Below, piece after piece: positions 44,202 through 63,600 of a stretch of 64,000 nt of DNA. The notes beneath the pieces were generated by a model. That model was given only the letters and a program-made list of their open reading frames with translations. It was not told the DNA's origin and did no database searches. Origin of the DNA: Candidatus Chisholmbacteria bacterium (GTDB taxonomy: Bacteria > Patescibacteriota > Microgenomatia > UBA1400 > Chisholmbacteraceae); NCBI GenBank assembly GCA_963704905.1, contig CAVPHZ010000001.1, positions 323,438-387,437 of the forward strand, written 5' to 3'. The position numbers were made by a program, and so were the translations under genes. Each line of letters starts with the position of its first letter. Position 1 is the stretch's first letter.

Positions 44202-45695
44202 TTATTTTCTTCGAGTTTCACCGGCGAGTGATTCAATCTTCTGGGCAACGTAGGTTCTGGCTCCGGAGGAGATTCCACCCGCCACACCTCGTACCGGGGC
44301 TGTGGCTACCCTAGCTCCAGCGGCAATTGGAGCAAAGATGCCGGCGGCCGGTATTCCTTTGGCTTTCAGCGCTTGCTGGAGCGTGGTTACCAGCTGGGGG
44401 GTAAAGAGGATGAAACCATATCCTATTAAAGCGAGGACAGATTCGACGTCTGTGGTAAAGCCGATGAAAGGCGGAAGCCAACCTTCACCACTATCTCTAA
44501 TGACTGAACTGGTTATTCCCCACTCATCTCTTCCTAAAGAACAACGGTCTGGATCACTTGAAGTACATGGACCCATGAGAATAGCTCCAATGAGGAGGAG
44601 GGCTGCAGCGGCAGGAAAGACAAGAACATTGGCGAGGAAATTTCGAGCCCAACTGCTGAAGCTGTCTGATCCAGGCAGAGCATTGGGAAGGATCATCAAC
44701 GGAGAGAAGATGGTCAGCATGATGATTTTTACATAGGACATGAGCAACTGGAAAAAGAGACGGAAGGCGGCAAACAGAAGTGCAACCGACATGATGACGG
44801 TGACAAATGCGTCTCCGACGATTCCGACGATAAAGCCAATGGTGTCGTTGTCAAACACGTTCTCAATGATATTTCTGATTTGATCTCCTGCGGTGTCCCC
44901 GGAAACCGTGTCAAAGCCTTTAAAGAGAATGGTAAAGATGTTTTCACCGATGAATACCTGGCGCGGTGCGGAGGCACTCGTTAGGAGCCCTTGAGTGTAT
45001 AGTGTTGAGATGACGAGATAGATGCCGAGGTAGATGAGGTCGACGAAAAAGCCTGCTATCGCAAAGGAAAAAGTGATGAGCAGCAAAGTGACCACAAGTT
45101 TTGGGAGCGAGTTTTGAAGGTTGACCACGGTTTGAGGGTCAAGCTGAGCGCGAAACATGATCATAAATCCAATGAAGATAAAGATGATCACGTAGGCAAG
45201 ATAGGCGATGTTTCTAAACGCAGCCCAGAGATCTGTCAAAGGAAGGAGGGCACGATAGCCGGTGCTCTGCGCATAGGCAGGTTCAACCGGGTTTATTTTG
45301 CGAGCGACGTATTGAATATATTGTCCTGAAGAAACAGGCCGTTCGGCGATAAGTCCGGCGATGAAGCCTCCGGCGAATTGTACTGCACCTGGCCGTCTAT
45401 AGCTGAATGGAGTCGGGTCTGCTGTGGGATGCTCAGTGGTTCTGAATGTCGAGGTACTGGTGGTGTTTAAGATTGCATTTACGATAGCAGTAACTGTGCA
45501 CTCAAGACCCACGTTTCCGTCAGCACATTCTTGCAGCGCCAAGTCGTGTTCGGCTGAGCTGGGCTGAAACCATAGGCTTTGGGCAAATATTGGTATGGAA
45601 AAGAGGGTGAATAACACGATGAGAACAGCAACGATTTTCCAGAGTGGTTTGTTGAGAACATTTCTGAGCCAGCGCAGGTGTTTCATCAGCGTCAT
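44202..45695 (-). CDS. polytopic membrane protein (VirB6/TrbL-like candidate)
   Basis: 497 aa with an N-terminal signal/TM and at least six further hydrophobic helices, in a T4SS-like context. Confidence 0.35.
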   Translation of the reverse strand: MTLMKHLRWLRNVLNKPLWKIVAVLIVLFTLFSIPIFAQSLWFQPSSAEHDLALQECADGNVGLECTVTAIVNAILNTTSTSTFRTTEHPTADPTPFSYRRPGAVQFAGGFIAGLIAERPVSSGQYIQYVARKINPVEPAYAQSTGYRALLPLTDLWAAFRNIAYLAYVIIFIFIGFMIMFRAQLDPQTVVNLQNSLPKLVVTLLLITFSFAIAGFFVDLIYLGIYLVISTLYTQGLLTSASAPRQVFIGENIFTILFKGFDTVSGDTAGDQIRNIIENVFDNDTIGFIVGIVGDAFVTVIMSVALLFAAFRLFFQLLMSYVKIIMLTIFSPLMILPNALPGSDSFSSWARNFLANVLVFPAAAALLLIGAILMGPCTSSDPDRCSLGRDEWGITSSVIRDSGEGWLPPFIGFTTDVESVLALIGYGFILFTPQLVTTLQQALKAKGIPAAGIFAPIAAGARVATAPVRGVAGGISSGARTYVAQKIESLAGETRRK

Positions 45696-48819: not shown

Positions 48820-49290
48820 CTACAACCCTGTTGTGTCTGGGCAAGGTATATTGAACTCCAGTAGCGTGAAGGTGACACCGAAGATGAAATCGTCAATAAA
48901 TTTGAGAATAAACCAGGCAAGTATCATTAGTGCAATTCCTGCGATTGCATAGGTCATGGTATTTTTGGCGTCTTGTACCGCTTTTTGATCACCACCACTG
49001 GTAAGATAGCGGAAGCCTCCAAATATTAACATTACAAAGAGAAGTATTCCGGCAATTGAGACCGCGGCTGACAGGATATTGGCAAAAATATAGTTAAAAT
49101 CACATAGGGGATTTACTGCCGAAGGTTGAACTATTCCAGCGTAGATAGTCCTAGGTTTTAGTATGCCCAATACAGCCGTGAAGAGCGCAACTACCCACGT
49201 TCGCTTCAAGTTCATTATCAGATGATTAAAAACAATCGGAACGTTCTTGGTGAGGCTCCGATTGTTTTTTCTTTTTTCCATTATGATCAT
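48820..49290 (-). CDS. T4SS pilin-like two-helix membrane protein (paralog 1 of 7)
   Basis: Signal/TM1, loop LFVMLIFGGFRYLTSGGDQKAVQDAKNTMTYAIAGIAL, then TM2. Shares the W/Y-[LI]-[TS]-[AS]-G-[GN]-[DP]...K...A..G[LI] motif with the neighbouring ORFs. Confidence 0.5.
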   Translation of the reverse strand: MIIMEKRKNNRSLTKNVPIVFNHLIMNLKRTWVVALFTAVLGILKPRTIYAGIVQPSAVNPLCDFNYIFANILSAAVSIAGILLFVMLIFGGFRYLTSGGDQKAVQDAKNTMTYAIAGIALMILAWFILKFIDDFIFGVTFTLLEFNIPCPDTTGL

Positions 49291-49335
49291 TGCTCTGATT
49301 CACAACTTAAATTCTATCTTGTGTGTACTATCTGA

Positions 49336-49683
49336 TTAATAGAATGTTGGGAGTGAAAGGGTGCTCGTGAAATTGACTCCAAAGAAGAAGTTGATCAGTT
49401 GCATGATGGCCCAGGCTGCTGCGATGACAGCAAGTCCGACCAATGCGTTTGAAATTCTTCCGCGAGCTGCTTCAATGTTGGCCTTATCACCTCCGGCAGT
49501 AATCCATTGGATTCCACCCCAAACCAGATATGCAAAGACAAGAACTCCTGCAATGAGGAAGGCTGCTCCAATGGCCCCAGAAATGAGCGTTCCAATATCA
49601 GTAATCTGGAATCCTGATGGTCTGCCAACGTTGACGCTAGCGTATGCTTGTGGTGCGAGTTGCATATCTTCACCTCCTCTCAA
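49336..49683 (-). CDS. T4SS pilin-like protein (paralog 2)
   Basis: LVWGGIQWITAGGDKANIEAARGRISNALVGLAVIAAAWAIM. Confidence 0.5.
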   Translation of the reverse strand: MRGGEDMQLAPQAYASVNVGRPSGFQITDIGTLISGAIGAAFLIAGVLVFAYLVWGGIQWITAGGDKANIEAARGRISNALVGLAVIAAAWAIMQLINFFFGVNFTSTLSLPTFY

Positions 49684-49817
49684 TGCAGTGATGATTATGG
49701 TTTTATGTACTTTCCTTGTTTATTTTGATCAATATTCGACGAACTGTCAACTTCAGTATTTGAAAATTTCTAGTCTTTGCTGAAAACTTGCTCCATTTTT
49801 TAACCTTTATATTCTAT

Positions 49818-50132
49818 CTATATTGGGTTGATTGGAAGCCCAAGAACATAGATGGCGATAAGATAGACTGCCCATGCAGCTGCAACTAAGACTAGCCCAG
49901 TTGCTGCGTTGGTCATCCGTTGTTTGGCTGCTTCTACGTGGGTTTTGTCACCTCCAGCTGTTAACCATTGGAGTGCTGACATGACGAAGAAGAGGATGAA
50001 CGCGAGACCACCGAAGATGAGTGCGAGTGCCAATACATTACTTACCACATCACCAATCGATGTGATTTTAAAGAATGTTCCAATGTCTAGTTGAGAACTG
50101 ACGTTTACAGGTATTGGTGTAAAAAGTGTCAT
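49818..50132 (-). CDS. T4SS pilin-like protein (paralog 3)
   Basis: ALQWLTAGGDKTHVEAAKQRMTNAATGLVLVAAAWAVY. Confidence 0.5.
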   Translation of the reverse strand: MTLFTPIPVNVSSQLDIGTFFKITSIGDVVSNVLALALIFGGLAFILFFVMSALQWLTAGGDKTHVEAAKQRMTNAATGLVLVAAAWAVYLIAIYVLGLPINPI

Positions 50133-50146
50133 AGGTATCTATTGAA

Positions 50147-50533
50147 TTACGGTCCAGGAAAGTCAAACGACAAATCTTCTAGGAATTGGATATTTAAGAC
50201 AGAACCGAGAAACTGAATAATAGCCACAGAGGCCACGAGTATGACGAGACCGATAGCCCCGTTGGCAATTTTGTCTCTACCTTCTTCAAATTTGGATTTG
50301 TCACCCTGAGCAGTTACCCAACGAACCGCTCCCCATGCGAAGTATAAAACAAAGAAGATACTTCCAACAATGACGAGGGTTTTCCAGATGTTAGCGATCA
50401 TCATTGCTAACGCTTCACCGGGTGCTCCGGTGCTGTATGTGGGAGCAACGGGGTTAGAGATTCTTGCATAGCTAGGAGTTGAGCTAAGCAGTGTTAGGAG
50501 GGAGCTGGTAATTATTTTCAGCTTTTTTTTCAT
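50147..50533 (-). CDS. T4SS pilin-like protein (paralog 4)
   Basis: AVRWVTAQGDKSKFEEGRDKIANGAIGLVILVASVAII. N-terminal signal peptide. Confidence 0.5.
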   Translation of the reverse strand: MKKKLKIITSSLLTLLSSTPSYARISNPVAPTYSTGAPGEALAMMIANIWKTLVIVGSIFFVLYFAWGAVRWVTAQGDKSKFEEGRDKIANGAIGLVILVASVAIIQFLGSVLNIQFLEDLSFDFPGP

Positions 50534-50544
50534 GACATCAGGTA

Positions 50545-50904
50545 TTAAGGTGTTAGTTCACCAATTCTGGCTGCTAAATCTAGAATATCAAATCCGAGCA
50601 GTAAACCAAGTATTCCGGTAATTGCCCAAGTCATGACAATGATCACCAAACCAATAGCTGCATTCGATAAATACCTCTGGGCTTTTTTTACTTTTTCTTG
50701 GTCACCTTGGGCGGTGAGATAATTCAGCGCTCCAAGCAGAAAATAGATGATGAATGCCAAACCTCCTATTACCGTGAATGTTCCCAAGAGAACGCTGAAG
50801 AAATTTTCAAGAGTGCCCCCAACATCAGTTGCAGTTACTTGGAAGGGGCTGTCTCCTGTGATTGGCTGGAAGTCTAGTGCATAGATTGGCTTGATGTTAG
50901 TCAT
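50545..50904 (-). CDS. T4SS pilin-like protein (paralog 5)
   Basis: ALNYLTAQGDQEKVKKAQRYLSNAAIGLVIIVMTWAI. Confidence 0.5.
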   Translation of the reverse strand: MTNIKPIYALDFQPITGDSPFQVTATDVGGTLENFFSVLLGTFTVIGGLAFIIYFLLGALNYLTAQGDQEKVKKAQRYLSNAAIGLVIIVMTWAITGILGLLLGFDILDLAARIGELTP

Positions 50905-50905
50905 A

Positions 50906-51346
50906 TTATGGACCAGGCCCAGTTATAGACGGTTGTAAAATGGCGGTCGCGTCTCCAAAAAGTAAAAGTCCCATCAGCGCTGCAAAGGCAAAAGCCAAAA
51001 CGACTACTATCAACCCGATGATCGATTGATAGATTTTTTGCCAGGCACTGGAGATTTTTTCCGGATTACCGGCAGAGCTGATAAATGAAACCCCACCGAG
51101 TACAAAGTTGATAAAGGCGTACAGTCCAGCAGCTATAGTAATCAGGCGAATAACATTTGAGAGAAACACTGTGGCGTAAGGGAGATCTCCATAGGCTGTG
51201 ATGGGATTGGTAATTGTTCCAATCAATCCAGCATGCGCAATTTTTACCTGAAATATAGCGTTATACACTAGAGCGAGAAGAACAATTGAAATAGTTCTCA
51301 AACTACTTACTTTTGGCAAAAGATGATGATTATTGTTCATGACCAT
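50906..51346 (-). CDS. T4SS pilin-like protein (paralog 6, divergent)
   Basis: GVSFISSAGNPEKISSAWQKIYQSIIGLIVVVLAFAFA (GNPE variant of the loop). Confidence 0.45.
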   Translation of the reverse strand: MVMNNNHHLLPKVSSLRTISIVLLALVYNAIFQVKIAHAGLIGTITNPITAYGDLPYATVFLSNVIRLITIAAGLYAFINFVLGGVSFISSAGNPEKISSAWQKIYQSIIGLIVVVLAFAFAALMGLLLFGDATAILQPSITGPGP

Positions 51347-51364
51347 GTTTGCTGTTTCTTAATT

Positions 51365-51802
51365 TTAGAGTCCGGAGGTCAGGATAGCAATACCGGTTAG
51401 CACTTCGATAATTCGGATGATCCAAAATGCTCCAAAGACAAGTCCAAGCCCCATGACACCTGCGGTCGCTGCATTTTTGCCTTTCTCGTTTTGCTGCGGG
51501 TTTCCTGCTGAAGAGATCATGGCAATCCCAGCTCCGATGATGAGTAGAAATGAAATTAACCCAGCGCCTACCATGGCCGTAGTGAGTAAGGGAGAGATAT
51601 AGTCTCCAAGTGTTCTGGTCCCACCGAATGCAAGTGGATAGGCAGTTGCAATATCAACAGGAGGAGGTTGCGCATAAACGGCTGAGGTAATTCGGAAGAA
51701 TATGCCTGTTGAGAGGATTGTGATGATTGCTATTTGGCGATTGAGGGTGGGCTTCATGCTTGAGAATAGCATACCATTATTGTGATTATCATAGCCGGTC
51801 AT
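51365..51802 (-). CDS. T4SS pilin-like protein (paralog 7, divergent)
   Basis: GIAMISSAGNPQQNEKGKNAATAGVMGLGLVFGAFWII. Confidence 0.45.
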   Translation of the reverse strand: MTGYDNHNNGMLFSSMKPTLNRQIAIITILSTGIFFRITSAVYAQPPPVDIATAYPLAFGGTRTLGDYISPLLTTAMVGAGLISFLLIIGAGIAMISSAGNPQQNEKGKNAATAGVMGLGLVFGAFWIIRIIEVLTGIAILTSGL

Positions 51803-51833: not shown

Positions 51834-52397
51834 ATGAAGTCGAAGTCTTCTGATATTGATGAGCGGTTACTTGTCGAAGGTTTGCTTAAGGGTTCAGAGC
51901 GTTGGTTAGGTTTGTATTACCGAACCTATTCATCTCCAGTTCGACGGTTTATCACTAGTCGAGTGAGGTTGCCTGATGATGCTGAGGAAATTCTCCAAGA
52001 TACTCTCTTATCTTCATTGGACTCTCTGGCACTCTTTTCGCGGAGATCGAGTTTGTTTACCTGGCTGTGCAGCATTGCGAGACATGAGATTGCGGATTAT
52101 TACCGGCGACGTACGATTAAGACGATTGTTTTTTCCAAGGTACCGTTTGTTGAGCGATTCGTGAGTCGGGCGCTTGAACCAGACGCCGGTTTTATGCGTC
52201 GTGAATATGAGCAGCGAGTTAAACAGGCGTTGTCTATGATTTTGCCTCATTATCGTACAGCGCTGGAGCTTAAATATATGGATGGGTTATCGGTGGCTGA
52301 AATCAGTGAACAACTGGGGATGAGTTTAAAAGCTTGTGAGTCGGTGCTTACCCGAGCGCGAAAGGCATTTGAGCTGGCGTATGAGCAGACAGCGTAG
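51834..52397 (+). CDS. ECF-type RNA polymerase sigma-70 family factor
   Basis: Region 2 (RFITSRVRLPDDAEEILQDTLL..L) and region 4 HTH (LSVAEISEQLGMSLKACESVLTRARKAF). 187 aa. Confidence 0.75.
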   Translation: MKSKSSDIDERLLVEGLLKGSERWLGLYYRTYSSPVRRFITSRVRLPDDAEEILQDTLLSSLDSLALFSRRSSLFTWLCSIARHEIADYYRRRTIKTIVFSKVPFVERFVSRALEPDAGFMRREYEQRVKQALSMILPHYRTALELKYMDGLSVAEISEQLGMSLKACESVLTRARKAFELAYEQTA

Positions 52398-53119: not shown

Positions 53120-54400
53120 ATGACTACTGATGAATGGGTGAAAAAAAGTGTGCGGCAGGGAAAGTTGCTGGTTGAAGTTCCAGACCATTGGAGTGAGAAG
53201 AAGCGGGTGTTGGCTCGTCGGAAGGTGCTTGAGCAACTCACCGGTGTTCGCTTGTCTTCACTATCTTTGAATGAGGAGTTACTGAATGCAGCCTCCTCGA
53301 GAAATATTGAACAGGCAATTGGTGCGACTTCTGTTCCAGTTGGAATTGTTGGCCCGCTGCGCGTTCGCTCGGGGCAAGCACTTCAAATTTTCTCAAAACA
53401 AGACCTACGCATGCGTTCCCGCCATCAGGGTGGGCAAGCAAAAGAGGAGAAGGAATATTTTATACCAGTAGCGACAACTGAAGGAGCGCTGGTTGCGAGC
53501 ATCAATCGAGGGTGTAAGTCAATTACGCAGGCTGGTGGAGCTGCTGTGGTATCTGAAAAAATTGGGATTACACGGGCTCCTGTTTTTCGAGTACAAAGCC
53601 TCTCAGAGGGGAAGACATTTATTGCATATATCCGACAGCATTTGTCTGAACTGCGTACCATTGCACATGATACTGATCGACATCTGAAGCTTGTTCACAT
53701 AGAACCAAAGATGGTTGGACGGAGTGTTTTTTTACGATTTCGGTTTAATACCGAAGAAGCGATGGGAATGAATATGGCAACGATTGCTACTGATGCTCTT
53801 TCGCAGCATTTAGAAAAGGTTTGTAATGTTTCCTGTGTCAGTCTGTCGTCCAACTACTGTATTGATAAAAAGCCAGCATCGTTGAACTTTCAGTCTGGGC
53901 GAGGTTATCAAGTTTGGGCGGAAATTGTTTTACCGCCGTCTTCTGTAGCCAATTTACTTAAGACAACAGTTGAAAAAATTGCTGAAGTATCTTATCGAAA
54001 ACTGTTTGTCGGATCGGCACTTTCGAATTCACTGGGATTTAACGCACAATATGCCAATATTGTTGCGGCTTTGTTTCTGGCAACCGGGCAAGACATTGCT
54101 CATGTGGTGGAGGGATCGATGGGGATTACAACAGTTGAGCAGGTGAAGAAAGGACTCTATGTGAGTGTTTTCTTACCCTCGCTGGTTCTGGGAACGGTGG
54201 GTGGTGGAACTGGATTACCGGCTCAGAACGAAGCGCTACAGATCATGGGACTTGGTGGTGCTAAAACCGGAGATAGTGAAACATTGGCTGAGATTGTGGG
54301 TGCGACTGTGTTGGCTGGGGAGATTTCTCTTTTAGCATCTTTAGCGGAAGGGTCGCTGGCTCGGTCACACCAAAGACTGGGGAGGAACCATACAGCATGA
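53120..54400 (+). CDS. hmgA: HMG-CoA reductase, class I (archaeal/eukaryotic-type)
   Basis: EEAMGMNMATIATDA and LGTVGGGTGLPAQ match the class I DAMGMN / GTVGG motifs. 426 aa. Confidence 0.85.
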   Translation: MTTDEWVKKSVRQGKLLVEVPDHWSEKKRVLARRKVLEQLTGVRLSSLSLNEELLNAASSRNIEQAIGATSVPVGIVGPLRVRSGQALQIFSKQDLRMRSRHQGGQAKEEKEYFIPVATTEGALVASINRGCKSITQAGGAAVVSEKIGITRAPVFRVQSLSEGKTFIAYIRQHLSELRTIAHDTDRHLKLVHIEPKMVGRSVFLRFRFNTEEAMGMNMATIATDALSQHLEKVCNVSCVSLSSNYCIDKKPASLNFQSGRGYQVWAEIVLPPSSVANLLKTTVEKIAEVSYRKLFVGSALSNSLGFNAQYANIVAALFLATGQDIAHVVEGSMGITTVEQVKKGLYVSVFLPSLVLGTVGGGTGLPAQNEALQIMGLGGAKTGDSETLAEIVGATVLAGEISLLASLAEGSLARSHQRLGRNHTA

Positions 54401-55437
54401 TTCATCATAAAAAACTCACTGGAATTGGGATCGTTGGATATGGATCGTACGTTCCACGACTACGAATACGTATTTCGGAAATCGCCTCCTCGTATGGAGT
54501 CGACGGGAAACAAGTAGAACAGAATTTATGCGTCAAGCAAAAATCAGTGGCTCAGTGGGATGAAGATGTGGTGACGTTGGCGTACATGGCGAGTTCTGGT
54601 GCTCTTAGCATGGCAAATATTGATGCTACAAAAATTGGAGCACTCTATATTGGTAGTGAAAGCCATCCCTATGCGGTGAAGACTACGAGTACCATTGTTG
54701 GAGAAGCGCTCGGAGTTGGACATGAATACATGGCTGCTGACTTAGAATTTGCGTGTAAAGCAGGTACTTCGGGAGTGCAACTGATTGCTTCACATCTGCT
54801 CAGTGGTGTTATCTCATATGGTTTGGCTGTTGGGGCTGATGTGGCGCAGGCAGAGCCAGGAGATTTACTTGAATACACTGCCGCTGCCGGAGGAGCAGCT
54901 CTGCTTTTGGGAAAACGGAGAATACTAGCCCGATTAACTGGATTTTTTTCCTATTGCAGTGATACCAGCGATTTTTGGAGAAGGAGTGAGCAGAAGCTTC
55001 CACAGCATGCAGGACGTTTTACTGGGGAACCAGCATATTTCCGACACATTATTGCTGCAACTGAAGCTTTTTTTAAGGCTTCGAAAACCAATGCTTCTAC
55101 CTATGATCATGTGGTGTTTCATATGCCAAATGGAAAGTTTCCTGTACGAGCGGCTCAACGACTTGGTTTTGGCGAGAAACAATTAAAGCACGGCTTCATT
55201 GTTAGTGAGATCGGCAATCCGTATAGTGCTTCAACGCTTCTTGGTTTGTGCCGGGTGCTTGATAATGCAGATAACCAACAGCGCATACTTCTAGTTTCGT
55301 ACGGCTCAGGTGCAGGATCAGATGTGCTTTCTTTTTTTACAACACCGCTACTGGCAAGATACCGAAGAAGACTGTCGCAAGCAGCGCATCAACCAACCTA
55401 TCTTTCATATGGAGCATATCGGGCAATGGTGGGGTAA
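54397..55437 (+). CDS. hydroxymethylglutaryl-CoA synthase (archaeal-type, thiolase-fold)
   Basis: 346 aa, condensing-enzyme fold with active-site Cys context (LEFACKAGTSG). Translationally coupled to hmgA (ATGA overlap). Adjacent to the thiolase and DUF35 genes, as in archaeal HMGCS/thiolase/DUF35 complexes. Confidence 0.7.
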   Translation: MIHHKKLTGIGIVGYGSYVPRLRIRISEIASSYGVDGKQVEQNLCVKQKSVAQWDEDVVTLAYMASSGALSMANIDATKIGALYIGSESHPYAVKTTSTIVGEALGVGHEYMAADLEFACKAGTSGVQLIASHLLSGVISYGLAVGADVAQAEPGDLLEYTAAAGGAALLLGKRRILARLTGFFSYCSDTSDFWRRSEQKLPQHAGRFTGEPAYFRHIIAATEAFFKASKTNASTYDHVVFHMPNGKFPVRAAQRLGFGEKQLKHGFIVSEIGNPYSASTLLGLCRVLDNADNQQRILLVSYGSGAGSDVLSFFTTPLLARYRRRLSQAAHQPTYLSYGAYRAMVG

Positions 55438-55443
55438 TCAATT

Positions 55444-56622
55444 ATGGATAGAAGGCAACACATAGCTAGTCATGGGAAATTAGATATTGCCGTCCTTGGT
55501 GTAGGTCAGACGAAGTTTGGCGAGCTTTGGGACGCATCTCTTTTAGATCTGGCAACCGAGGCTTCTGCAGAAGCACTTCAGGATGCGAGCCTTGATTTTC
55601 GGCGGATAGACGCGGTGGTTGTGGGTAACATGCTTTCAAATACACTGCAAAATCAAGCACATTTAGGAGCGCTGGTTGCATCTCGACTCGGAATACAAGC
55701 CCCATCCTTACGAGTTGAAGGCGCTTGTGCATCTGGTGGGCTAGCAATTCGAACAGGCATTGAGAAGCTTTTGTCAGGAACTGCTGGGAACGTACTTGTG
55801 GTTGGAGTGGAAAAAATGACTGATCATTCCACTGACCTTTCAACCCAGGCTCTTATGGGTGCTTCGGATGCCCTAGAACAGTTTGCTGGAGTAACTTTTC
55901 CTGGTTTATATGCATTGGTTACCCGTGCGTATATGGAGGAGTTTGACGTTTCAGACCATAGTCTGGCAGGTGTTCCGGTTAAGAATCATGATCATGGAAT
56001 TTTGAACCCTAAGGCGCATTTTCGCTTTCGGATTAATACTGATCAGGTACTTGCGAGTCCATGTGTTGCTTCTCCTTTAAAACTTCTTGATTGTTCACCG
56101 CTGTCAGATGGTGCAGCTGCGGTTGTGCTGAGCCTTTCTAATGGATTTAAAAAACGATCGGTTCGGATTGTTGGTGCTGGGCAGGCGAGTGATGTCGTAC
56201 CTTTGGCTGATCGGCTTTCGCTCACGGAATTCAACGCAGCTCGCAAGGCTGCAGATGAAGTATTTGAAATGGCTTCTCTTGAACCTGCTGATGTTGATCT
56301 CATGGAAGTGCATGATTGTTTTACTATTGGAGAGATTTTAGCCCTTGAGGATATGGGGTTTTCAAAAAAAGGTGAGGGTTGGGTGATCGCATCGAATGGG
56401 GAGTGCCGTTTAGGTGGAAAAAGACCCGTCAATACATCTGGAGGACTTAAGTCGTGCGGGCACCCAGTTGCCGCAACGGGAGTTAAGCAAATTGTTGAGT
56501 TAACTCTCCAGCTTCGTGAAGCAGCAGGAAAGCGGCAAGTATCTGGCGCTCGGGTTGGGTTAGCTCATAATGTTGGTGGTGTTGGTGGAACTGCCGTTGT
56601 CCATTTACTTCAGTCAGCTTAG
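55444..56622 (+). CDS. acetyl-CoA C-acetyltransferase (archaeal-type thiolase)
   Basis: VEGACASGGLAIRTG (active-site Cys), ...CGHPVAATGV (C-terminal catalytic His/Cys region). 392 aa. Confidence 0.8.
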   Translation: MDRRQHIASHGKLDIAVLGVGQTKFGELWDASLLDLATEASAEALQDASLDFRRIDAVVVGNMLSNTLQNQAHLGALVASRLGIQAPSLRVEGACASGGLAIRTGIEKLLSGTAGNVLVVGVEKMTDHSTDLSTQALMGASDALEQFAGVTFPGLYALVTRAYMEEFDVSDHSLAGVPVKNHDHGILNPKAHFRFRINTDQVLASPCVASPLKLLDCSPLSDGAAAVVLSLSNGFKKRSVRIVGAGQASDVVPLADRLSLTEFNAARKAADEVFEMASLEPADVDLMEVHDCFTIGEILALEDMGFSKKGEGWVIASNGECRLGGKRPVNTSGGLKSCGHPVAATGVKQIVELTLQLREAAGKRQVSGARVGLAHNVGGVGGTAVVHLLQSA

Positions 56623-56627
56623 CTGTT

Positions 56628-56972
56628 ATGACTCAAACGACTCCAGTTTCCTTATCTCGATCAAAAGAAACACGCTACCGACTTCTGGGAAAGGTGGGAT
56701 CTGTTGTCTCATATACTTCCATTGCGGTTGGGCCAAATGGCCTTAAGAAACGAACACCGTATTTGATAGCAATTGTTGATTTCGGTGCCATGCGAGCAAC
56801 TCTGCCGCTGGCTGATGTTTCTGCTGGTGAAGTAAAAAATGGAATGAAGGTTGTGGGTGTGATGCGAAGGATGTCTGATCCTAGTGAAGATGGGATTATT
56901 TCTTATGGTGTGAAGTGTGTGCCAGTAGTCATGAATATCCGGAAGAGCTCAAAGAACAAAAACAATGAATAA
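56628..56972 (+). CDS. DUF35-like OB-fold protein (thiolase/HMGCS scaffold), lacking Zn-ribbon cysteines
   Basis: 114-aa ORF immediately after the thiolase. OB-fold-like composition. Assigned mainly by the conserved three-gene arrangement known from archaea. Confidence 0.45.
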   Translation: MTQTTPVSLSRSKETRYRLLGKVGSVVSYTSIAVGPNGLKKRTPYLIAIVDFGAMRATLPLADVSAGEVKNGMKVVGVMRRMSDPSEDGIISYGVKCVPVVMNIRKSSKNKNNE

Positions 56973-57507
56973 CATGCAACGAATGCACATCGATCAACAG
57001 GTTGTCTTGGTGGATGAGATGGACAGACCAATTGGCACGGCAGCCAAGAATGAGGTTCATACTGCTCATACACCTCTTCATCGAGGTTTGTCTGTGTTTC
57101 TTTTTGATAACAATGGCAAGGTTTTGGTGCAACAGCGGGCGCTTCGTAAGCAGACTTGGCCAGGGGTGTGGAGCAATTCTTGTTGTGGTCATCCTCAGCC
57201 TGGAGAAACATATGATCAGGCAGTATTACGAGAGGTGAAAGAGGAATTAGGCTTAGAGATACAGGATCTGAAAAAAGTGTCAGATTATCGATACCTATTT
57301 GAACGTGACGGGATGGTTGAAAATGAAATTTGCCCTGTTTTCATGGGAACGGCTGTGGGTGAAGTTACACTGGACCCAAGTGAAGTTGCTGATTATAAGT
57401 GGATGAAGTGGGAGGATTTCAAGCAGGCATTGAAAGATGATAGCGATGGAACATGGAGTGAGTGGTGTAAAGAGGAAGCTACGTTAGTGGACAAATTACT
57501 GCAGTAA
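56965..57507 (+). CDS. idi: isopentenyl-diphosphate delta-isomerase, type 1 (Nudix-fold)
   Basis: LHRGLSVFLFDNNGKVLVQQRALRKQTWPGVWSNSCCGHPQPGE...REVKEELG is the IDI-1 signature including the catalytic CC. Confidence 0.88.
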   Translation: MNNMQRMHIDQQVVLVDEMDRPIGTAAKNEVHTAHTPLHRGLSVFLFDNNGKVLVQQRALRKQTWPGVWSNSCCGHPQPGETYDQAVLREVKEELGLEIQDLKKVSDYRYLFERDGMVENEICPVFMGTAVGEVTLDPSEVADYKWMKWEDFKQALKDDSDGTWSEWCKEEATLVDKLLQ

Positions 57508-57510
57508 TGT

Positions 57511-58392
57511 ATGAAACCTGTAACGAGTAGATTTTCAGGAAAAGTGTTACTCAGCGGAGAACACAGCGTGGTTTACGGTCAGCCAGCACTTGTGGCAAGT
57601 GTTGATCGGAACATGACAGTTACCCTGCGACCTTCTAACGGTTTTCATTTACAGAGCGCTGTTGAGGATAAAATAGGTTTGGTTAGATATGCGCTTGAGT
57701 TGGCTGAGGTTGACCCTGATGTTTATAGCGTATCTATTGATTCAAATATTCCCTCTGGTTTAGGGACTTCGGCTGCGGTGTGTGCTGGTGTTATTCAAGC
57801 AGCTTATGAGTCGGTTGGAAATAAATTGGAGCGGGATGCGTTATTTCGACTGGCTTGGCAATGTGAGAAGAGAGCACATGGAAATTCTTCTGGTGTTGAT
57901 CCCGCAGCCGTCGTGTATGGAGGATTAATCTGGTATGTCCGGGATAAGGAGAGAACGACACTTCCACTCAAAACACACTACTCTTTTCTTTTGGTTGATA
58001 GCGGGACTCCTAAAGAATCTACTGGAGAGATGGTTTCATTGGTTGGTTCTCGCCTCAAACACAAGAAAGCAACATTCAAGAAACATATTACAGAAATCGG
58101 AGAAGTGACAAGATTATTTCGGAGACAGCTTTTGAAAGGACAGAGAGTTACAAAAGTAATTAATGATAACGGTTTGTTACTTGAGAAATTGGGGATCGTT
58201 AGTAAACAGACTCGAGAATTAAGCGAACACTTACGGGCAATGGGTTGCGGGGTGAAAGTAACCGGTGCAGGTGGTGTGAAAACAGGTTCTGGAATGCTTC
58301 TGGTTGACCATCCTGAGTTTGATACTATTTCAAGGAAATTAACATCTATGAGACTCAATTTGTTTGAGATTATCATTGGAGATGATCTATGA
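57511..58392 (+). CDS. GHMP kinase, mevalonate kinase family (mevalonate or phosphomevalonate kinase)
   Basis: N-terminal GKVLLSGEHSVVYGQPALVASV, and a GHMP ATP-binding loop PSGLGTSAAV. Confidence 0.6.
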   Translation: MKPVTSRFSGKVLLSGEHSVVYGQPALVASVDRNMTVTLRPSNGFHLQSAVEDKIGLVRYALELAEVDPDVYSVSIDSNIPSGLGTSAAVCAGVIQAAYESVGNKLERDALFRLAWQCEKRAHGNSSGVDPAAVVYGGLIWYVRDKERTTLPLKTHYSFLLVDSGTPKESTGEMVSLVGSRLKHKKATFKKHITEIGEVTRLFRRQLLKGQRVTKVINDNGLLLEKLGIVSKQTRELSEHLRAMGCGVKVTGAGGVKTGSGMLLVDHPEFDTISRKLTSMRLNLFEIIIGDDL

Positions 58393-59369
58393 ACACAGTT
58401 GTTTCTTCTGCGCCGGGAAAGCTGATGCTCTTTGGCGAACATGCGGTCGTGTATGGTCATCCATGCATTGTGACCGCAGTTGATCAGCGAATGCGTGTTT
58501 CTGTTTCATTCAACGGAAAAGGTGAGATTGTTGTCCGGGCTCCGCAGGTCGGGTTGGAGAGATATTCAAAAAAAATCGCGCTTTTGGGAAAACACGATGT
58601 TCCAAAACCAGTTCGTTTTATTGAATTGTTAGTGAAGAATTATCAGGATCAGTATGGTTTGGAGCGAGGGTTGGATATAATAACTGAGAGTGAATTTTCA
58701 GCCGATTATGGATTTGGTTCCTCGGCTGCTGTTACCGTTGCTCTTGCATATGGATTAGCTCAACTTCATTCTCTTCGGTTATCAAATCAGCAATTGTTTG
58801 AGCTTTGCTTCAAAGCGGTATTGGATGTCCAAGGTGTCGGTTCTGGTTTTGATATTGCAGCATCTATATATGGGGGCACGCTTTATTATATTAAAGGAGG
58901 TAGTAGCATTCAGTCGATATCTTGGGATGGCGATTGTCCAATAGTTGTTGGATACACAGGTATTAAAGCTGATACACCAACGCTTATTCGGCAGGTGGCG
59001 GAATATCGTGTGCATCAACTAGAAAAAACTACATCGACTTTTGAGCACATTTCAGAGATTGTTCATTCAGCTGAAGTTGCTTTTAGTAAACAACAGTATA
59101 AGGTTTTAGGAAAACTTGCGACTAAGAATCAAAAACTTCTTCATTCATTAGGAATTAGCAGTGTAGAGTTGGATCGACTTATCAGCGCCGCTCAACAAGC
59201 AGGAGCACTTGGATCTAAGCTCTCCGGAGCCGGTGGAGGGGATTGTATGATTTCCTTTGTGAGTGATAAGAAGAGAGAAGATGTTGAGGCGGTAATTTCA
59301 AATGCAGGTGGAGAAGTTGTCGATGTTCGTCTTCATGCTCAAGGAGTTCGAAAGGAGAAGATGTCATGA
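58389..59369 (+). CDS. GHMP kinase, mevalonate kinase family (second kinase of pathway)
   Basis: APGKLMLFGEHAVVYGHPCIV, and GFGSSAAVTVA. Translationally coupled on both sides. Confidence 0.6.
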   Translation: MNTVVSSAPGKLMLFGEHAVVYGHPCIVTAVDQRMRVSVSFNGKGEIVVRAPQVGLERYSKKIALLGKHDVPKPVRFIELLVKNYQDQYGLERGLDIITESEFSADYGFGSSAAVTVALAYGLAQLHSLRLSNQQLFELCFKAVLDVQGVGSGFDIAASIYGGTLYYIKGGSSIQSISWDGDCPIVVGYTGIKADTPTLIRQVAEYRVHQLEKTTSTFEHISEIVHSAEVAFSKQQYKVLGKLATKNQKLLHSLGISSVELDRLISAAQQAGALGSKLSGAGGGDCMISFVSDKKREDVEAVISNAGGEVVDVRLHAQGVRKEKMS

Positions 59370-60346
59370 AAGCGACAGCTTGGGCACCAGTAAATGTTGC
59401 ACTGATCAAGTATTGGGGAAAAGATGACCTACGGTTTCGTTTACCCTCAAACTCTAGTTTTTCCGTTTGCCTTAAGAGGCTAGGGACGCTGACAACTGTA
59501 GAATTCTCGCAAGATTTTATTAAGGATAAGGTAGGTATTGATGGATCTATCGCTGAAGAACGTGATCTCGATAGAGTTGTAGGACATGTTGATCATATGC
59601 GTAAGTTGAGAGGTGTTCAGTATCCCGTTCAAATTGAGTCGAAGAATAATTTTCCTATGAGTGTTGGTTTGTCTTCTTCAGCCTCGGGGTTTGCTGCGTT
59701 GAGCAAGGCAACTGATTCTGCTCTGGAATTGGGATTATCACCTCGCCAGTTATCTCGTATTGCACGCATGGGTTCGGGATCAGCTAGCAGAAGTGTTCCT
59801 GATGGTTGGGTTGAGTGGCGAGCTGGAACTTCTGATGTTTCTTCATATTCTGAGTCAATTTTTCCTGCCGATCATTGGGATTTACGTGTTTTGGTTATAT
59901 TACTCAGTCAAGATGAAAAACGGGTGAGTTCTACTGATGGACATGCAGCTGCTCAAACGAGTCCTTTTTTTAAAGTTAGAAAACGGGAGATTCGCAAGAA
60001 ATTGGTAAACATGAAGACGTTTGTTCAGGAGAGAAATTTTTCTCTATTTGGTGAGCTTTTGGAGGATGAAGCTCTGAACATGCATGCGGTGATGCTGACG
60101 AGTAAACCAAATTTAATTTATTGGTTGCCTGAGACAGTAAGAGTTATGCAAGCAATACAAGATTGGCGAGCTCAAGGTTTAGAGAGTTACTTTACGATTA
60201 ACACAGGGCAGAATGTGTTTGTGTTTTGTAAACCTAAAGATGAGAACCGATTAGTTAGAAAATTATCAAGGCTTGAAGGAGTAATTGAGATAAGGAGAGA
60301 TAGCATTGGGCGCGGGGCGAAAATTATAAAGAAGCATTTGTTTTAG
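59366..60346 (+). CDS. mvaD: diphosphomevalonate decarboxylase (MVD family)
   Basis: N-terminal AWAPVNVALIKYWGK and a GHMP-like SVGLSSSASGFAAL are typical of mevalonate diphosphate decarboxylase. Confidence 0.78.
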   Translation: MKATAWAPVNVALIKYWGKDDLRFRLPSNSSFSVCLKRLGTLTTVEFSQDFIKDKVGIDGSIAEERDLDRVVGHVDHMRKLRGVQYPVQIESKNNFPMSVGLSSSASGFAALSKATDSALELGLSPRQLSRIARMGSGSASRSVPDGWVEWRAGTSDVSSYSESIFPADHWDLRVLVILLSQDEKRVSSTDGHAAAQTSPFFKVRKREIRKKLVNMKTFVQERNFSLFGELLEDEALNMHAVMLTSKPNLIYWLPETVRVMQAIQDWRAQGLESYFTINTGQNVFVFCKPKDENRLVRKLSRLEGVIEIRRDSIGRGAKIIKKHLF

Positions 60347-60352
60347 AGCACT

Positions 60353-61066
60353 ATGACAATTGAAACTGAGAATTTACCCAAGCATATCGCAATCATCATG
60401 GACGGTAATCGGCGATGGGCGAGGAACAAGGGATTGCCGGCCGTGGCAGGACATGATTATGTGGCGGAAAAACTACTTGAACCTTTGGTTGACCGGTGCA
60501 TTGAGCTGGGAATACCGTTTATAACGTTCTGGGCATTTTCAACCGAGAATTGGCAGAGAAATCAGCGAGAAGTTAAAGGGATGATGCGGATATTCCGTAA
60601 AGGGTTAAAGCGGAATGCACGGCGGTTATTTGAGAAGGGTGCGCGGCTTACCATCATCGGAGATATTGAAAAGTTTCCAGAAGATATTTCCTTGCAAACG
60701 AAAGAGTGGGTTGAGAAGAGCAGAGAGAATAAGAATATTACCGTGAGTTTCGCTTTGAATTATGGTGGAAGAGATGAACTGCTTCGTGCTATTGCAAAGA
60801 TTGAAGCAGCAATTATTACTAATAAATTTTCAATTTCTAAATTGAATGAAAAAACGTTTGCTCAATACTTGGATACAGAGGGGATACCGGATCCTGACTT
60901 AATCATTCGCACCGGAGGAGAACAGCGACTTTCAGGGTTTATGAGCTGGCAGAGTGCTTATAGTGAGCTTTATTTTACTCAGACACTTATGCCTGACTTT
61001 GACGCGGAATGTCTTAGTGAAGCGGTTCAGTGGTATCAGCAGAGGAACCGACGGTTTGGCAGATAA
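60353..61066 (+). CDS. uppS: isoprenyl transferase (undecaprenyl-diphosphate synthase family)
   Basis: HIAIIMDGNRRWA...FSTENWQR...RTGGEQRLSGF is the cis-prenyltransferase signature. Confidence 0.9.
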   Translation: MTIETENLPKHIAIIMDGNRRWARNKGLPAVAGHDYVAEKLLEPLVDRCIELGIPFITFWAFSTENWQRNQREVKGMMRIFRKGLKRNARRLFEKGARLTIIGDIEKFPEDISLQTKEWVEKSRENKNITVSFALNYGGRDELLRAIAKIEAAIITNKFSISKLNEKTFAQYLDTEGIPDPDLIIRTGGEQRLSGFMSWQSAYSELYFTQTLMPDFDAECLSEAVQWYQQRNRRFGR

Positions 61067-61072: not shown

Positions 61073-61435
61073 TTATGGTGTGAATTGAAATCCAATTAAT
61101 ACTTCGACGAGTCTCCAAATCCAGAACGCAGCGAATATCAATATAAAGCCAACGAGCGATGCGGTGAGTCGTTTCTTCCCTTTTTCTAATCCTTCTGGAT
61201 TTCCTGCAGACATGAGGAGCTGATAACCAGAGACAATAATCATGAAGATCAGTATTACCCCAGCGATTGCAAATGCGTAGGTAGTGAGTCCTATTCCACT
61301 GCCGCTTCCGGTCAGTATTGTGCCTAGATTTGTAAGATCTCCGGTTCCGCTTCCGTACTCTGTGCCTCCAGGAGGTGAGGAACAGTACCAGCCACCTCCC
61401 CAGGGATAACAATAGGCTTGTGCAAGCAATTCCAT
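61073..61435 (-). CDS. T4SS pilin-like protein (second cluster, member A)
   Basis: Loop QLLMSAGNPEGLEKGKKRLTASLVGFILIFAAFWIW between two TM helices, related to the 48.8-51.8 kb paralogs. Confidence 0.45.
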   Translation of the reverse strand: MELLAQAYCYPWGGGWYCSSPPGGTEYGSGTGDLTNLGTILTGSGSGIGLTTYAFAIAGVILIFMIIVSGYQLLMSAGNPEGLEKGKKRLTASLVGFILIFAAFWIWRLVEVLIGFQFTP

Positions 61436-61444
61436 TATTTGGTT

Positions 61445-62239
61445 TTAAATAAATAAGTCTAGAAACTCTCTTGTAATGAGGTTGAGTATTAACCAGGCAA
61501 AAATCATTATAATCACACCGGTGATACCACGACTAAATACTTCTCTGCCGCGTTTAATCTGCTCGACATCACCCCGTGAAGTAAGCACGAAAAACGCACC
61601 TATCACCATGGTCAACAAGGCAACCCCTCCGATTGCTCCGACGAATAATCTTCGTACCCCAGCCAGGAAGTACAGCGGATGGGTGGGAAAGCATCCTAGA
61701 GCGGTGTCTAGGGGTGGATGATCAGTACAAAAGTCAGCCGTGAAATTAGAAGGCTGCCATGGAAGAGGGCAACTACACTCAGTTGGTTGCATTGGCTGTT
61801 CACAGCTGTTTCCGTTGTCGGTGTCAATGGTACAGCCCGCGTCTTCTGAGAGGTTGAGAGAAGAAAGTGAACACCAGGTTAATCCGATGGCGGTTCTCAG
61901 TCTTACCTTCAGAGATAAATTTTTATCCTGACATGATGGAATGACATGGTAGGTGGAGCAGGTGTACCAGAAGCCTGCTCCATCCTGAGCAGTGGCGTCG
62001 GTGCTGAAAGAGTGCCAGTTGTCGCAACTTCCTTCTCCCGAAGTATGGAGGCCATGTACTTGAAGCTCTTCCTCGGTTTCAAACTCACCTGCACAGAGAT
62101 CAAAACTCGATGAGGTGATGTTGAACGCTTCACAACGGGCTGCATAGATATTTTTTGTCGAAAATACGGTGGCAACTATCAGTATAAATAGGGTAATAGC
62201 GAATTTTCTTTTCATATTTCTTTTAACCATTGCATGCAA
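61445..62239 (-). CDS. chimeric protein: signal peptide, Cys-rich ectodomain and C-terminal pilin-like two-helix domain
   Basis: The N-terminal 190 aa have about 14 Cys (CEAFNITSSSFDLCAGE...CSCPLPW). The C-terminus LLTMVIGAFFVLTSRGDVEQIKRGREVFSRGITGVIIMIFAWLIL is pilin-like. Start may be the Met at 62215 (MKRKFAITLF). Confidence 0.45.
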   Translation of the reverse strand: MHAMVKRNMKRKFAITLFILIVATVFSTKNIYAARCEAFNITSSSFDLCAGEFETEEELQVHGLHTSGEGSCDNWHSFSTDATAQDGAGFWYTCSTYHVIPSCQDKNLSLKVRLRTAIGLTWCSLSSLNLSEDAGCTIDTDNGNSCEQPMQPTECSCPLPWQPSNFTADFCTDHPPLDTALGCFPTHPLYFLAGVRRLFVGAIGGVALLTMVIGAFFVLTSRGDVEQIKRGREVFSRGITGVIIMIFAWLILNLITREFLDLFI

Positions 62240-62421
62240 ACGGTGGTGATAATTATCACCATTCTAGCGGATTTATTTAAGGCATGTATCTATGAGTGTA
62301 ACAAAGCACGTTTACCTCCAGCAACTTAACGATTCCAGCGATTATCAAAAGATAAATAAACTTCGGCGAAGATCCAGATGATTTGTGGTAATGAAAAGGT
62401 TTTAACTCCCCATTCTTGTTC

Positions 62422-62808
62422 TCAGCTGGTGAACTGGTAGTAGCCGATGAGGACTTGGATGAGTTGAAAAATCCAGAATGCGGCAAATATGAGAATGAAA
62501 CCTACGAGCGAGGCAGTTAAGCGTTTTTTTCCAGTCTCTATCCCTTCTGGATTTCCTACAGAGGTGAGGAGTTGATAGCCAGAAGCAATGATCATGAGCA
62601 GTAAAATAAGGCCAGCGACTGCAAGGATATACGGCATGAGACTGCCAATCATTGCGCCTAGGCTGGAAAGATTCCCTATACTAAAACCATAACTTTGCGG
62701 ATTTGGGACGACCCGCCAGCTCCCAGCCCACGGTATTTGTAAATACATAAAAATCATCTTCTTACCCCTCCGATTGTTACTGCAGTATATTGAGCACGTC
62801 AACCCCAA
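62422..62808 (-). CDS. T4SS pilin-like protein (second cluster, member B)
   Basis: QLLTSVGNPEGIETGKKRLTASLVGFILIFAAFWIF, almost identical in its loop/TM2 to member A. Recent duplicate. Confidence 0.45.
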   Translation of the reverse strand: MGLTCSIYCSNNRRGKKMIFMYLQIPWAGSWRVVPNPQSYGFSIGNLSSLGAMIGSLMPYILAVAGLILLLMIIASGYQLLTSVGNPEGIETGKKRLTASLVGFILIFAAFWIFQLIQVLIGYYQFTS

Positions 62809-63500
62809 TCAATTCGAGCAGGAAGGTTGAGAAAATCAAAAACAATAAGCCAACTATTCCACCGGTCATGATCTCCTTTCCCCGCTTCATTCTTTCAGGC
62901 TGGCCCTGAGAAGTGAGCGTAAAGAAGGCGCCGATTATCATGATGAGAAGGGCGAGTCCTCCGCCTAATGCCAAGCAAGATGCCTCTGAAGGTGTTGAGA
63001 AATGAAATGGGGTGGGTGGGAATGCAGCCAACGGCGGTGTCAATGCTTGGATATTCGGTGATATAGGCAATACAATCATCGTATCCAGGTCCGGGGAGGC
63101 ACGTGTCGCATTCGGTGGGCAGGAAGGAGTCTACGCAGGTAGGGGAGGAGCTGAGGGGTCGACACAGCAGTCACTCCAAAATCCGCACCCACCATCGCCA
63201 TCGAAATTGCAGCGGAGCTGAGCAGGCTGGGGTAAACCACTCACAGGTGCCCGCAATGCCAGTACTTTCCCCAATGCACGCACCACCGGCGAGCGGTTCA
63301 CATTCGCAGGCTCTCAGATTGCAGGCAACTGATAGCGGAGCACACGCTACTGTGGGATCGGTGTCTGGGGGACAATTGCATAAACAACTGCCTGAATAAA
63401 ACTGGCAGACTCCGGGAACAGCAAATGTGTCTTTCGGCAACACTGCTGTGAATATTAGAAGCGTAAAGAGTATGAAAATCGAGGAAAGGTACTTTCTCAT
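62777..63500 (-). pseudogene. probable frameshift-split gene: Cys-rich secreted N-part (63171-63500) plus pilin-like C-part (62777-63079)
   Basis: 63171..63500 encodes a signal peptide plus Cys-rich module (CQFYSGSCLCNCPPDTDP...). 62777..63079, in a different frame, encodes a pilin-like domain (LLIMIIGAFFTLTSQGQPERMKRGKEIMTGGIVGLLFLIF). Together they mirror the intact chimeric architecture of 61445..62239. Confidence 0.4.
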
Positions 63501-63600
63501 TTAAGTTGAGTTTATCAGAAGGAGGTTCGTTGAGGCAACTCAATTCTTTCAGGAGGCTTGCATGTGTCGAAAATGTAGGAGAAGGTATAATGAGGGAGAG

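Follow-up and report, generated by a model that had tools for sequence, protein, structure and literature searches.

The 64,000-nucleotide stretch of a Candidatus Chisholmbacteria genome analyzed here (contig CAVPHZ010000001.1 of assembly GCA_963704905.1; hereafter the window) contains, between positions 61073 and 63500, five open reading frames (ORFs), all on the minus strand (61073-61435, 61445-62239, 62422-62808, 62777-63079 and 63171-63500). The locus appears to consist of two tandem, anciently diverged modules of Patescibacteria's type IV secretion system (T4SS) pilin system, in each of which a J-type gene is followed by an S-type gene. These labels are our own: "S-type" denotes a small cysteine-free pilin of about 110-120 amino acids (aa), presumably a plain VirB2-like two-helix pilin, and "J-type" a protein in which a signal peptide and an ectodomain precede the hairpin. 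In the overall reading that we favor, and consider somewhat probable, the two T4SS pilin modules are ancient, module A is intact, the J-type gene of module B has been inactivated, and J-type proteins act as recognition subunits of the surface or the pilus.

Family membership was assessed with the Pfam profiles PF18895 (T4SS_pilin; gathering score, 26.6 bits) and PF04956 (TrbC/VirB2; gathering score, 27.9 bits). PF18895 matches all four pilin-domain ORFs, which bears out the cluster of pilin-like genes that an earlier reading, made from the sequence alone (the sequence-only reading), had placed downstream of the mevalonate operon; both S-type pilins score above the PF18895 threshold (38.5 bits for 61073-61435 and 33.0 bits for 62422-62808). 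Many J-type homologs carry precomputed PF18895 matches, the J-type genes were recovered at E-values of 1e-11 to 1e-25 by a hidden Markov model (HMM) built from the window pilins, and the J-type hairpins are homologous to the S-type and array pilins (blastp E-values down to 5e-10; a single HMM recovers all of them). A pair of hydrophobic helices with a short basic loop between them is seen both in an AlphaFold2 (AF2) model and in the alignment of all 11 window pilins, and core T4SS genes lie in the neighborhood. The best PF04956 score is 13.9 bits (E-value 0.067), placing the proteins outside the TrbC/VirB2 family. Judged by their sequences, all four ORFs are assigned to the VirB2-like T4SS pilin family of Patescibacteria, the profile score of the J-type hairpins being marginal. 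Assignment to the type IV pilins was considered and rejected: there is no class III signal peptide motif (G/FTLxE), the hairpin is C-terminal, and no match to the Pfam pilin N-methylation profile was obtained.

Both J-type genes of the window are laid out alike: after a Sec-type signal peptide and a Cys-rich ectodomain come an F-x-P-x-EC-x-C module, a C-x(10-12)-TA[LV]GC[IF]PTHP loop, exactly 13 residues, a [VLAMI]GGG motif opening the first transmembrane helix (TM1), a basic loop (TSxGxPExxKRGKE) and a second transmembrane helix (TM2). The copy in module A is intact. Its ORF (61445-62239) amounts to 264 aa when read from a TTG codon, and the identical database protein P0001 begins at the ATG at 62230. 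Its order of elements, signal peptide (...NIYA/A), ectodomain (residues ~32-126), linker, F-x-P-x-EC-x-C module, C-x11-TALGC loop and hairpin, together with 12 cysteines in the mature protein, upholds the fusion of a signal peptide and a Cys-rich module to a C-terminal pilin-like domain described in the sequence-only reading. The AF2 model (mean predicted local distance difference test score, pLDDT, 77) comprises a signal helix and a predicted seven-strand beta-sandwich formed by the ectodomain (residues 32-126); after a disordered linker comes a long hairpin with helices at residues 185-216 and 222-260, most of which has a pLDDT of 84-90. The proposal that such a protein is a tip adhesin or a minor pilin is a reasonable reading of this architecture, and we retain it as a candidate role.

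The fusion is widespread. An HMMER scan of 1.84 billion cluster representatives returned 5043 at E≤1e-3 and 332 at E≤1e-10. The J class amounts to hundreds of clusters at 50% identity; the fusion class is common in databases, where it is labeled "hypothetical" or "pilin". Among the best hits examined, TAxGC lies about 89 residues from the C-terminus in 131 of 141 proteins, and the N-terminal region has a median length of 251 aa (range 15-588) and a median of nine cysteines. The total number of cysteines is even in 112 of 131, which fits an oxidized extracytoplasmic domain with a paired loop cysteine. A further motif, ...IPG[FWLI], occurs within the last 20 residues, after TM2, in 94 of the 141 J-type proteins; the two J-type genes of the window and their closest relatives are without it and end in ...LFI or ...ILQ.

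The relationships of ectodomains and hairpins are discordant. The J-type proteins P0004 and P0002 have hairpins that are 71% identical and unrelated ectodomains, whereas P0004 and P0055 share ectodomains that are 58% identical and hairpins that are only 50% identical; from this discordance it follows that ectodomains have been swapped on a conserved anchor. Metagenomic polypeptides of the type J+S+S are also found, P0088 (487 aa) and P0147 (483 aa), in which a J-type unit is continued by two further pilin hairpins. Since such fusions exist, and since J-type genes with giant ectodomains end the main pilin arrays of two Microgenomates genomes, J-type proteins would be tied functionally to small pilins. 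The giant forms measure 956 and 879 aa, with 24-26 cysteines (locus L011, 353-3223, and locus L021, 1319-3958), and carry the same TALGC loop and hairpin at their extreme C-terminus. In P0088 and P0147 an AxA-Q-like motif (AYAQ, HAAQ) stands before each later unit, and TM2 of one unit may, judging from this, serve as the signal sequence for the next.

The J+S pair has a recurrent genomic position. Using the HMM from the window pilins, a TAxGC-type pilin followed by a Cys-free small pilin was found beside uppS in most Microgenomates-type loci with pilin genes there; the smallest J-type proteins in this position have 112 aa and no cysteines but the two of the loop, the largest 507 aa and 14-22 cysteines. 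In other loci the main array itself abuts uppS (e.g., L014 and L017-L019). In two closer relatives a single pair lies between a gene for a SpoIID-domain protein and uppS; it consists of P0004 and a 128-aa S-type pilin in L081/L082 (GCA_022564195.1) and of P0002 and a 113-aa S-type pilin in L084-L086. Module A is orthologous to the L082 pair (60% identity for S, 46% for J) and module B (62422-63500) to the L084 pair (59% and 43%). The window holds both pair types, owing either to the loss of one module in each of the relatives or to a gain in the window genome.

The S-type pilin of module A (61073-61435) consists of a short N-terminal tail, TM1, a loop (GNPEGLEKGKKR) and TM2, and no cleavable signal peptide is evident in it. 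That of module B most likely starts at the ATG at 62757, not at the TTG at 62808: this ATG lies 7 nucleotides (nt) after GGAGG, and the resulting N-terminus, MIFMYLQIPW, resembles that of the ortholog, MIYLTIPW. With this start the gene does not overlap the broken J-type gene upstream of it. The two S-type pilins had been taken for products of a recent duplication, their loop and TM2 being nearly identical, and this view does not survive a closer comparison. The stretch GNPEG[LI]E[KT]GKKRLTASLVGFILIFAAFWI is indeed identical at 27 of 30 residues; at the DNA level 67 of its 90 nt and 12 of its 30 third codon positions match, and the two proteins are 59% identical overall. A repeat search found modules A and B to match at 73-74% of nucleotides over their best 181 nt. 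The shared peptide is also conserved in the L082 and L084 orthologs, genomes whose UppS is only 54% identical to that of the window, and the orthologs of the two S-type pilins accompany distinct fusion types (those of L082 and L084). Because so few third positions match and the peptide is kept in divergent genomes, its identity is best attributed to purifying selection, and the comparison marks the two modules as old paralogs under such selection.

In module B the J-type gene is disrupted. tblastn with 70 family members places the signal peptide, together with the Cys-rich part and the junction IDTAVGCIPTHP, in the frame of the ATG at 63500 (frame A), and TM1, loop and TM2 in the +1 frame (frame B); the frame break that the sequence-only reading had noticed in 62777-63500 is therefore real. 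The alignments that span the junction end in frame A at ~62961-62973, and most of the hairpin-only alignments in frame B begin at 62959-62983, which puts the change of frame at ~62961-62983. The layout along the gene is frame A from 63500 to ~63232 (signal peptide and Cys-rich part), probably frame B from ~63231 to 63134, frame A again from ~63133 to 62970 (SFLPTECDTC...IDTAVGCIPTHPISFLNTF), and frame B from 62968 to 62777 (hairpin and stop codon). A composition log-odds score, for which 20 family ectodomains translated in and out of frame served as training set and which was clearer than a noisy codon-usage frame plot, favors frame A from 63446 to ~63235, frame B from ~63229 to 63175 and frame A again from 63158; over the disputed span it amounts to +13.4 for frame B and -9.9 for frame A, even when the stop codon is left out of account.

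The lesion nearest the hairpin is the best mapped. The 13-residue spacing between T[HYQ]P and [VLAMI]GGG is kept in 11 of 12 carriers in one alignment (A3), the intact J-type gene of the window included (P0008 reads LGAG), and because this spacing is constant the lesion can be placed: the broken gene has 12 codons plus 4 nt at that point, with GGCA before TTA GGC GGA GGA and no homopolymer or repeat at the site. Further upstream, the TGA at 63171-63173 is favored to be an out-of-frame stop exposed by a +1 indel lying before it, the alternative being a nonsense change from TGY to TGA. A single 240-aa ORF is restored by taking one C from 63232-63229, adding one C at either of the two downstream C4 runs and deleting A 62969. 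The repaired protein shares 43% identity with intact P0002 over 99% of its length, and contains 18, 19 or 20 cysteines depending on the repair. The gene thus carries no fewer than two small lesions, and probably three, within about 260 nt, instead of the single frameshift that had been suggested. Recoding of TGA (genetic code 25) was rejected, since TGA ends 9 of 35 intact ORFs and ORFs of translation table 11 tile the window. The positions of these elements are collected in Table 1.

Table 1. Features of the pilin modules and of the T4SS region in the window.
Feature	Position	Strand	Basis and remarks
VirB4-like ATPase	31220-33118		T4SS component
PrgI	34120-35235		T4SS component
M23 hydrolase, 1114 aa	36385-39729		M23 peptidase domain
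TrbL/VirB6-like protein	44202-45695		Pfam 19.4 bits, below the cut-off of 27
Seven-gene PF18895 pilin array	48820-51802		
ECF-type sigma factor	51834-52397		Divergent from the seven-gene pilin array
S-type pilin, module A, 120 aa	61073-61435	-	PF18895 38.5 bits; 60% identical to the small pilin beside P0004 in L082
J-type pilin, module A, 261 aa (P0001)	61445-62230	-	PF18895 25.1 bits; 46% identical to P0004
Perfect 16-nt palindrome GGTGATAATTATCACC	62245-62260	.	In the gap between the modules (182 nt by ORF coordinates), just upstream of the module A J-type gene
S-type pilin, module B, 111 aa, intact	62422-62757	-	PF18895 33.0 bits; 59% identical to the small pilin beside P0002 in L084
Disrupted J-type pilin, module B, conceptually 240 aa	62777-63500	-	tblastn frames, composition log-odds, repair
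Lesion 3, 1-nt insertion	62969-62972	-	GGCA where a single codon belongs, immediately ahead of LGGG in TM1
Candidate lesion 2 (inferred position)	63142-63158	-	C4 runs 63158-63155 and 63145-63142; one added C restores frame A
TGA stop codon	63171-63173	-	Ends translation from ATG 63500 after 109 codons
Candidate lesion 1, C4 run (inferred position)	63229-63232	-	Removing one C shifts to frame B (CNFDGDGGCGFWSDCCVDPSAPP)
Sigma-70-like promoter match	63543-63570	-	TCGACA-16-AAGAAT with TG; 43 nt upstream of ATG 63500

The disrupted gene is quite probably a pseudogene, as its homology to intact P0002 continues across the frame breaks and the stop codon. The sequence-only reading had left the choice between a pseudogene, a sequencing error and a phase-variable switch; the evidence leans toward the first and speaks against the last. 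Some observations, however, weigh against a biological origin of the lesions. A local consensus error would likewise show itself as three indels in about 260 nt of a gene that is well preserved elsewhere, two of the candidate sites are C4 runs, and the simplest repair leaves 19 cysteines, an odd number, while 85% of the relatives have an even one. Under this explanation the module B J-type gene would be intact in the organism, and the indels would be consensus errors, e.g., at C homopolymers or from merged strain variants: for two of the three inferred sites a C4 run offers a position, the gene looks undecayed (almost all hairpin invariants are kept, with 43-66% identity to relatives), and the region is locally GC-rich (0.56-0.61, vs. 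0.42 for the window). An independent 2.2-kb Logan contig (ERR12037370) reproduces the neighboring genes exactly, including the 120-aa protein, and ends at ~62875, about 100 nt short of the lesions, which it consequently does not confirm. Yet 35 intact ORFs of the window (46.9 kb), containing 129 G/C runs of at least four and 255 A/T runs of at least five, are without a frame break, the best-mapped lesion (62969-62972) is outside any homopolymer, and three errors in 260 nt would require a strongly local cause. We therefore hold an assembly or sequencing artifact to be rather unlikely. Metagenome scans with the repaired protein, and with its junction plus hairpin, found no relative.

A second explanation would treat the two ORFs as split yet functional: 63171-63500 would encode a secreted Cys-rich protein of 109 aa, and 62777-63079 a separate pilin of 100 aa. 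Each ORF has an ATG start, the first encodes a signal peptide, the second has the size of S-type pilins, which are without signal peptides, and the absence of Shine-Dalgarno motifs would mean little, these being rare in the genome (10 of 39 genes). However, both ORFs would miss the stretch 63131-62973 of frame A, which holds the conserved F-x-P-x-EC-x-C module and C-x-TAVGC loop, the 100-aa ORF opens with 35 residues that are an off-frame reading of the EC-x-C/TAVGC motif, and every homolog is a single polypeptide. Nor are such products, or any other product of the broken gene, on record; exact look-ups of the 264-aa, 109-aa and 100-aa ORFs returned no database record, and only the 261-aa and 120-aa products of the neighboring genes are recorded. 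A functional pair is on these grounds very improbable.

Least credible of all, and to our mind barely conceivable, is a reversible switch, in which phase variation at the break, or programmed ribosomal frameshifting, would control expression of the second ectodomain. Genes for surface and host interaction typically figure among contingency loci, two of the inferred sites have C4 runs close by, and AGG CGG AGG follows the break in frame A; this last is, however, an off-frame reading of the conserved LGGG motif, and AGG is not especially rare among arginine codons (66 of 758). A phase-variable contingency gene was rejected because GGCA, as mapped at 62969-62972, stands outside any homopolymer or repeat, runs in the vicinity do not exceed C4, no tract is long enough to slip, and the TGA at 63171 is a second, independent block upstream; apart from the old duplication of the modules, the repeat search likewise gave neither repeats for recombination nor tracts prone to slippage. 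Programmed frameshifting was rejected because all homologs retrieved are single-frame ORFs and the TGA would halt ribosomes 200 nt before the mapped frameshift.

Inactivation by mutation thus remains the preferred account of module B. The third-position GC content (GC3) of the 3' half of the broken gene, 0.60-0.62 against about 0.43-0.48 nearby, is a weak hint that module B was acquired, amino-acid composition being another possible cause. Overall GC content is 0.53-0.61 at 62900-63400 (0.42 in the window). Two candidate regulatory sequences lie upstream of the J-type genes. The palindrome GGTGATAATTATCACC, present in a single copy in the window against 0.2 expected by chance, may be an operator or part of a promoter, and the sigma-70-like match upstream of ATG 63500 is a possible promoter of the four-gene unit by consensus alone, such matches being weak in number (5 found vs. 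3.7 expected).

The wider setting agrees with a Patescibacterial T4SS. UppS of the window is at most 57% identical to that of Collierbacteria, Woesebacteria, Shapirobacteria and similar groups, and the window is of a Candidate Phyla Radiation (CPR)/Microgenomates-type genome. It encodes a monoderm-type T4SS (Table 1), with no relaxase seen among the window ORFs scanned, and the gene order runs from the T4SS and pilin array over the extracytoplasmic function (ECF) sigma factor and the mevalonate operon to uppS and the J/S pairs. This T4SS layout has already been described for Patescibacteria (PMC12102498, PMC10633639; reviewed in PMC12857230), and arrays of 2-11 VirB2-like pilin genes are especially abundant in Microgenomatia (PMC12102498). 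The ECF sigma factor, found in the same position and with 71% identity in a relative (L082, 14799-15416), is a possible regulator of the pilin array. The mevalonate operon (53120-61066) is complete, in a CPR genome, and starts with an archaeal-style trio of a 3-hydroxy-3-methylglutaryl-coenzyme A (HMG-CoA)-synthase-like protein, a thiolase and a small OB-fold (ChsH2_C/DUF35-type) protein, together with HMG-CoA reductase; the later genes encode a NUDIX protein (possibly an isopentenyl diphosphate isomerase), two GHMP kinases, diphosphomevalonate decarboxylase and UppS.

Could the J-type proteins not be pilins at all, their C-terminal hairpin being only a membrane anchor for surface proteins independent of the T4SS? 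Several points count against a pilin role. The J-type hairpins score marginally under the PF18895 gathering score (25.1 bits for 61445-62239 and 25.5 bits for 62777-63079, so that the pilin-like domain claimed for the latter is detectable by HMM just under the cut-off), and the TrbC/VirB2 score, as given above, is far under its own. A profile search of PDB sequences gave chance-level matches only, none significant, to solved pilins. No experimental support for filament formation by PF18895 members was found in the literature (PMC12102498, PMC12857230, PMC10633639). The mevalonate operon stands between the pair and the T4SS genes, the pair lying ~9-12 kb from the main array and ~28 kb from virB4, and because of this distance its link to the T4SS is one of family and neighborhood. 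The AF2 model was built on a 15-sequence alignment, and Foldseek matches of the ectodomain to immunoglobulin domains in the PDB are weak (best E-value about 2e-3, none ≤1e-3; target-normalized TM-score ≤0.58), so the ectodomain is taken as a generic beta-sandwich and no more. On the other side stand the homology of the J-type hairpins to the S-type and array pilins, the giant-ectodomain genes that end the main arrays in L011 and L021, the J+S+S fusions, and the L082 pair, which is ~3.6 kb from the main array. A mere membrane anchor is, in our judgment, unlikely.

How J-type proteins may function can be outlined from these features. In conjugative pili both termini of the pilin are generally taken to face outward and the loop between the helices to face the lumen, and an N-terminal ectodomain on a VirB2-type hairpin would therefore be displayed on a filament or on the surface, making J-type proteins plausible minor or tip subunits, or surface adhesins. 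The predicted topology has the ectodomain outside, the K/R-rich loop in the cytoplasm and the C-terminus outside. The hairpin would be the C-terminal anchor, in the membrane or in the pilus, and ahead of it would come the Sec signal peptide, a fast-evolving, swappable, disulfide-bonded ectodomain and, directly before TM1, the conserved disulfide loop (C-x10-12-TAxGC). Together with its cognate S-type pilin, a J-type protein could be displayed at the cell surface or built in small numbers into the T4SS pilus, as a tip, base or minor subunit, and might supply the recognition of target or host that the literature reports as missing from these T4SSs. In the window, module A (61073-62230) is intact, while module B has kept its S-type gene and would have lost its J-type protein, so that one of two alternative ectodomain cassettes is apparently caught in the course of loss, relatives keeping one or the other.

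The T4SS and its pilin array are essential in Southlakia, the one Patescibacterium studied genetically (PMC10633639), and a 2025 survey of Patescibacterial T4SSs detected no adhesin, a PrgB-like one included (PMC12102498). Pilin-anchored variable ectodomains, a large class that is easy to recognize, are concrete candidates for this recognition. We tentatively propose, as a possibility that we still regard as doubtful, that J-type proteins are the missing host-recognition component, with hairpin and disulfide loop serving as a universal adaptor that would fit interchangeable, disulfide-rich binding domains to the pilus, or to the envelope at the pilus base, and the S-type pilin as dedicated partner; if so, the gain, swap and loss of J-type cassettes would set the hosts to which an epibiont can attach. 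The broken copy is ordinary in itself and useful as evidence of cassette turnover, and the J+S pair beside uppS provides a simple genomic marker in Microgenomates for comparative and experimental work.

The closest known systems are the VirB2-like arrays of Patescibacteria, which belong to the same Pfam family, occur in Microgenomatia as tandem divergent paralogs (Quinonero-Coronel et al. 2025, PMC12102498; Wang et al. 2023, PMC10633639) and share their genomes with a monoderm-type T4SS comprising VirB4, PrgI and VirB6-like proteins. They differ in that the described members are small, text searches of both papers turning up no mention of large Cys-rich ectodomains led by a signal peptide, the TAxGC loop or the J+S pair (PMC12102498, PMC10633639). 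More broadly, no description of pilins with ectodomains, of the TAxGC loop, of mosaicism between ectodomain and anchor or of a conserved J+S pair next to uppS was found in PMC12102498, PMC10633639, PMC12857230 or by targeted searches, and searches for Cys-rich or fusion pilins in Patescibacteria yielded nothing beyond these three papers. The pilin family and its arrays are already known, and the J-type fusion class is, by homology, a variation within PF18895.

The diderm pilins VirB2, TrbC and TraA (PF04956) resemble the window proteins in their small size, in the two hydrophobic helices with a short basic loop, in being encoded with a T4SS and in a membrane insertion that depends on a signal peptide or an N-terminal tail. 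In contrast, similarity to them is below threshold (13.9 vs. 27.9 bits), the host here is a monoderm, and the classical pilins are without a large N-terminal domain, adhesion being provided by a separate protein, VirB5. The VirB2 paralogs of Bartonella, Anaplasma and Rickettsia likewise form sets of multiple divergent copies thought to vary surface or host range, with gene decay common among them (PMC12102498), but are small and without fused ectodomains, the variation residing in the pilin itself.

A low-copy tip protein that joins a conserved module to a variable binding domain is well known from FimH and PapG of chaperone-usher pili and from the minor type IV pilins CofB and TcpB. J-type proteins would follow the same logic, joining a polymerization or anchor module to a variable domain, with a gene next to that of the major subunit; neither folds nor assembly machines are related, the order of modules differs, and the likeness is one of analogy only. 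A distant relative is offered by NCBIfam NF045849, the Mbov_0395 family pilin-like conjugal transfer protein of Mycoplasma ICEs. The S-type pilins (61073-61435 and 62422-62757) match this model over 56-69 hairpin residues with E-values of 1e-6 to 1e-7 and, scoring 28-31 bits against a cut-off of 40, are related to the family without being members of it. The match suggests that VirB2-like proteins occur in monoderm (MPF-FATA-type) conjugation systems, and it points to a relative of the S-type pilins in monoderm conjugation.

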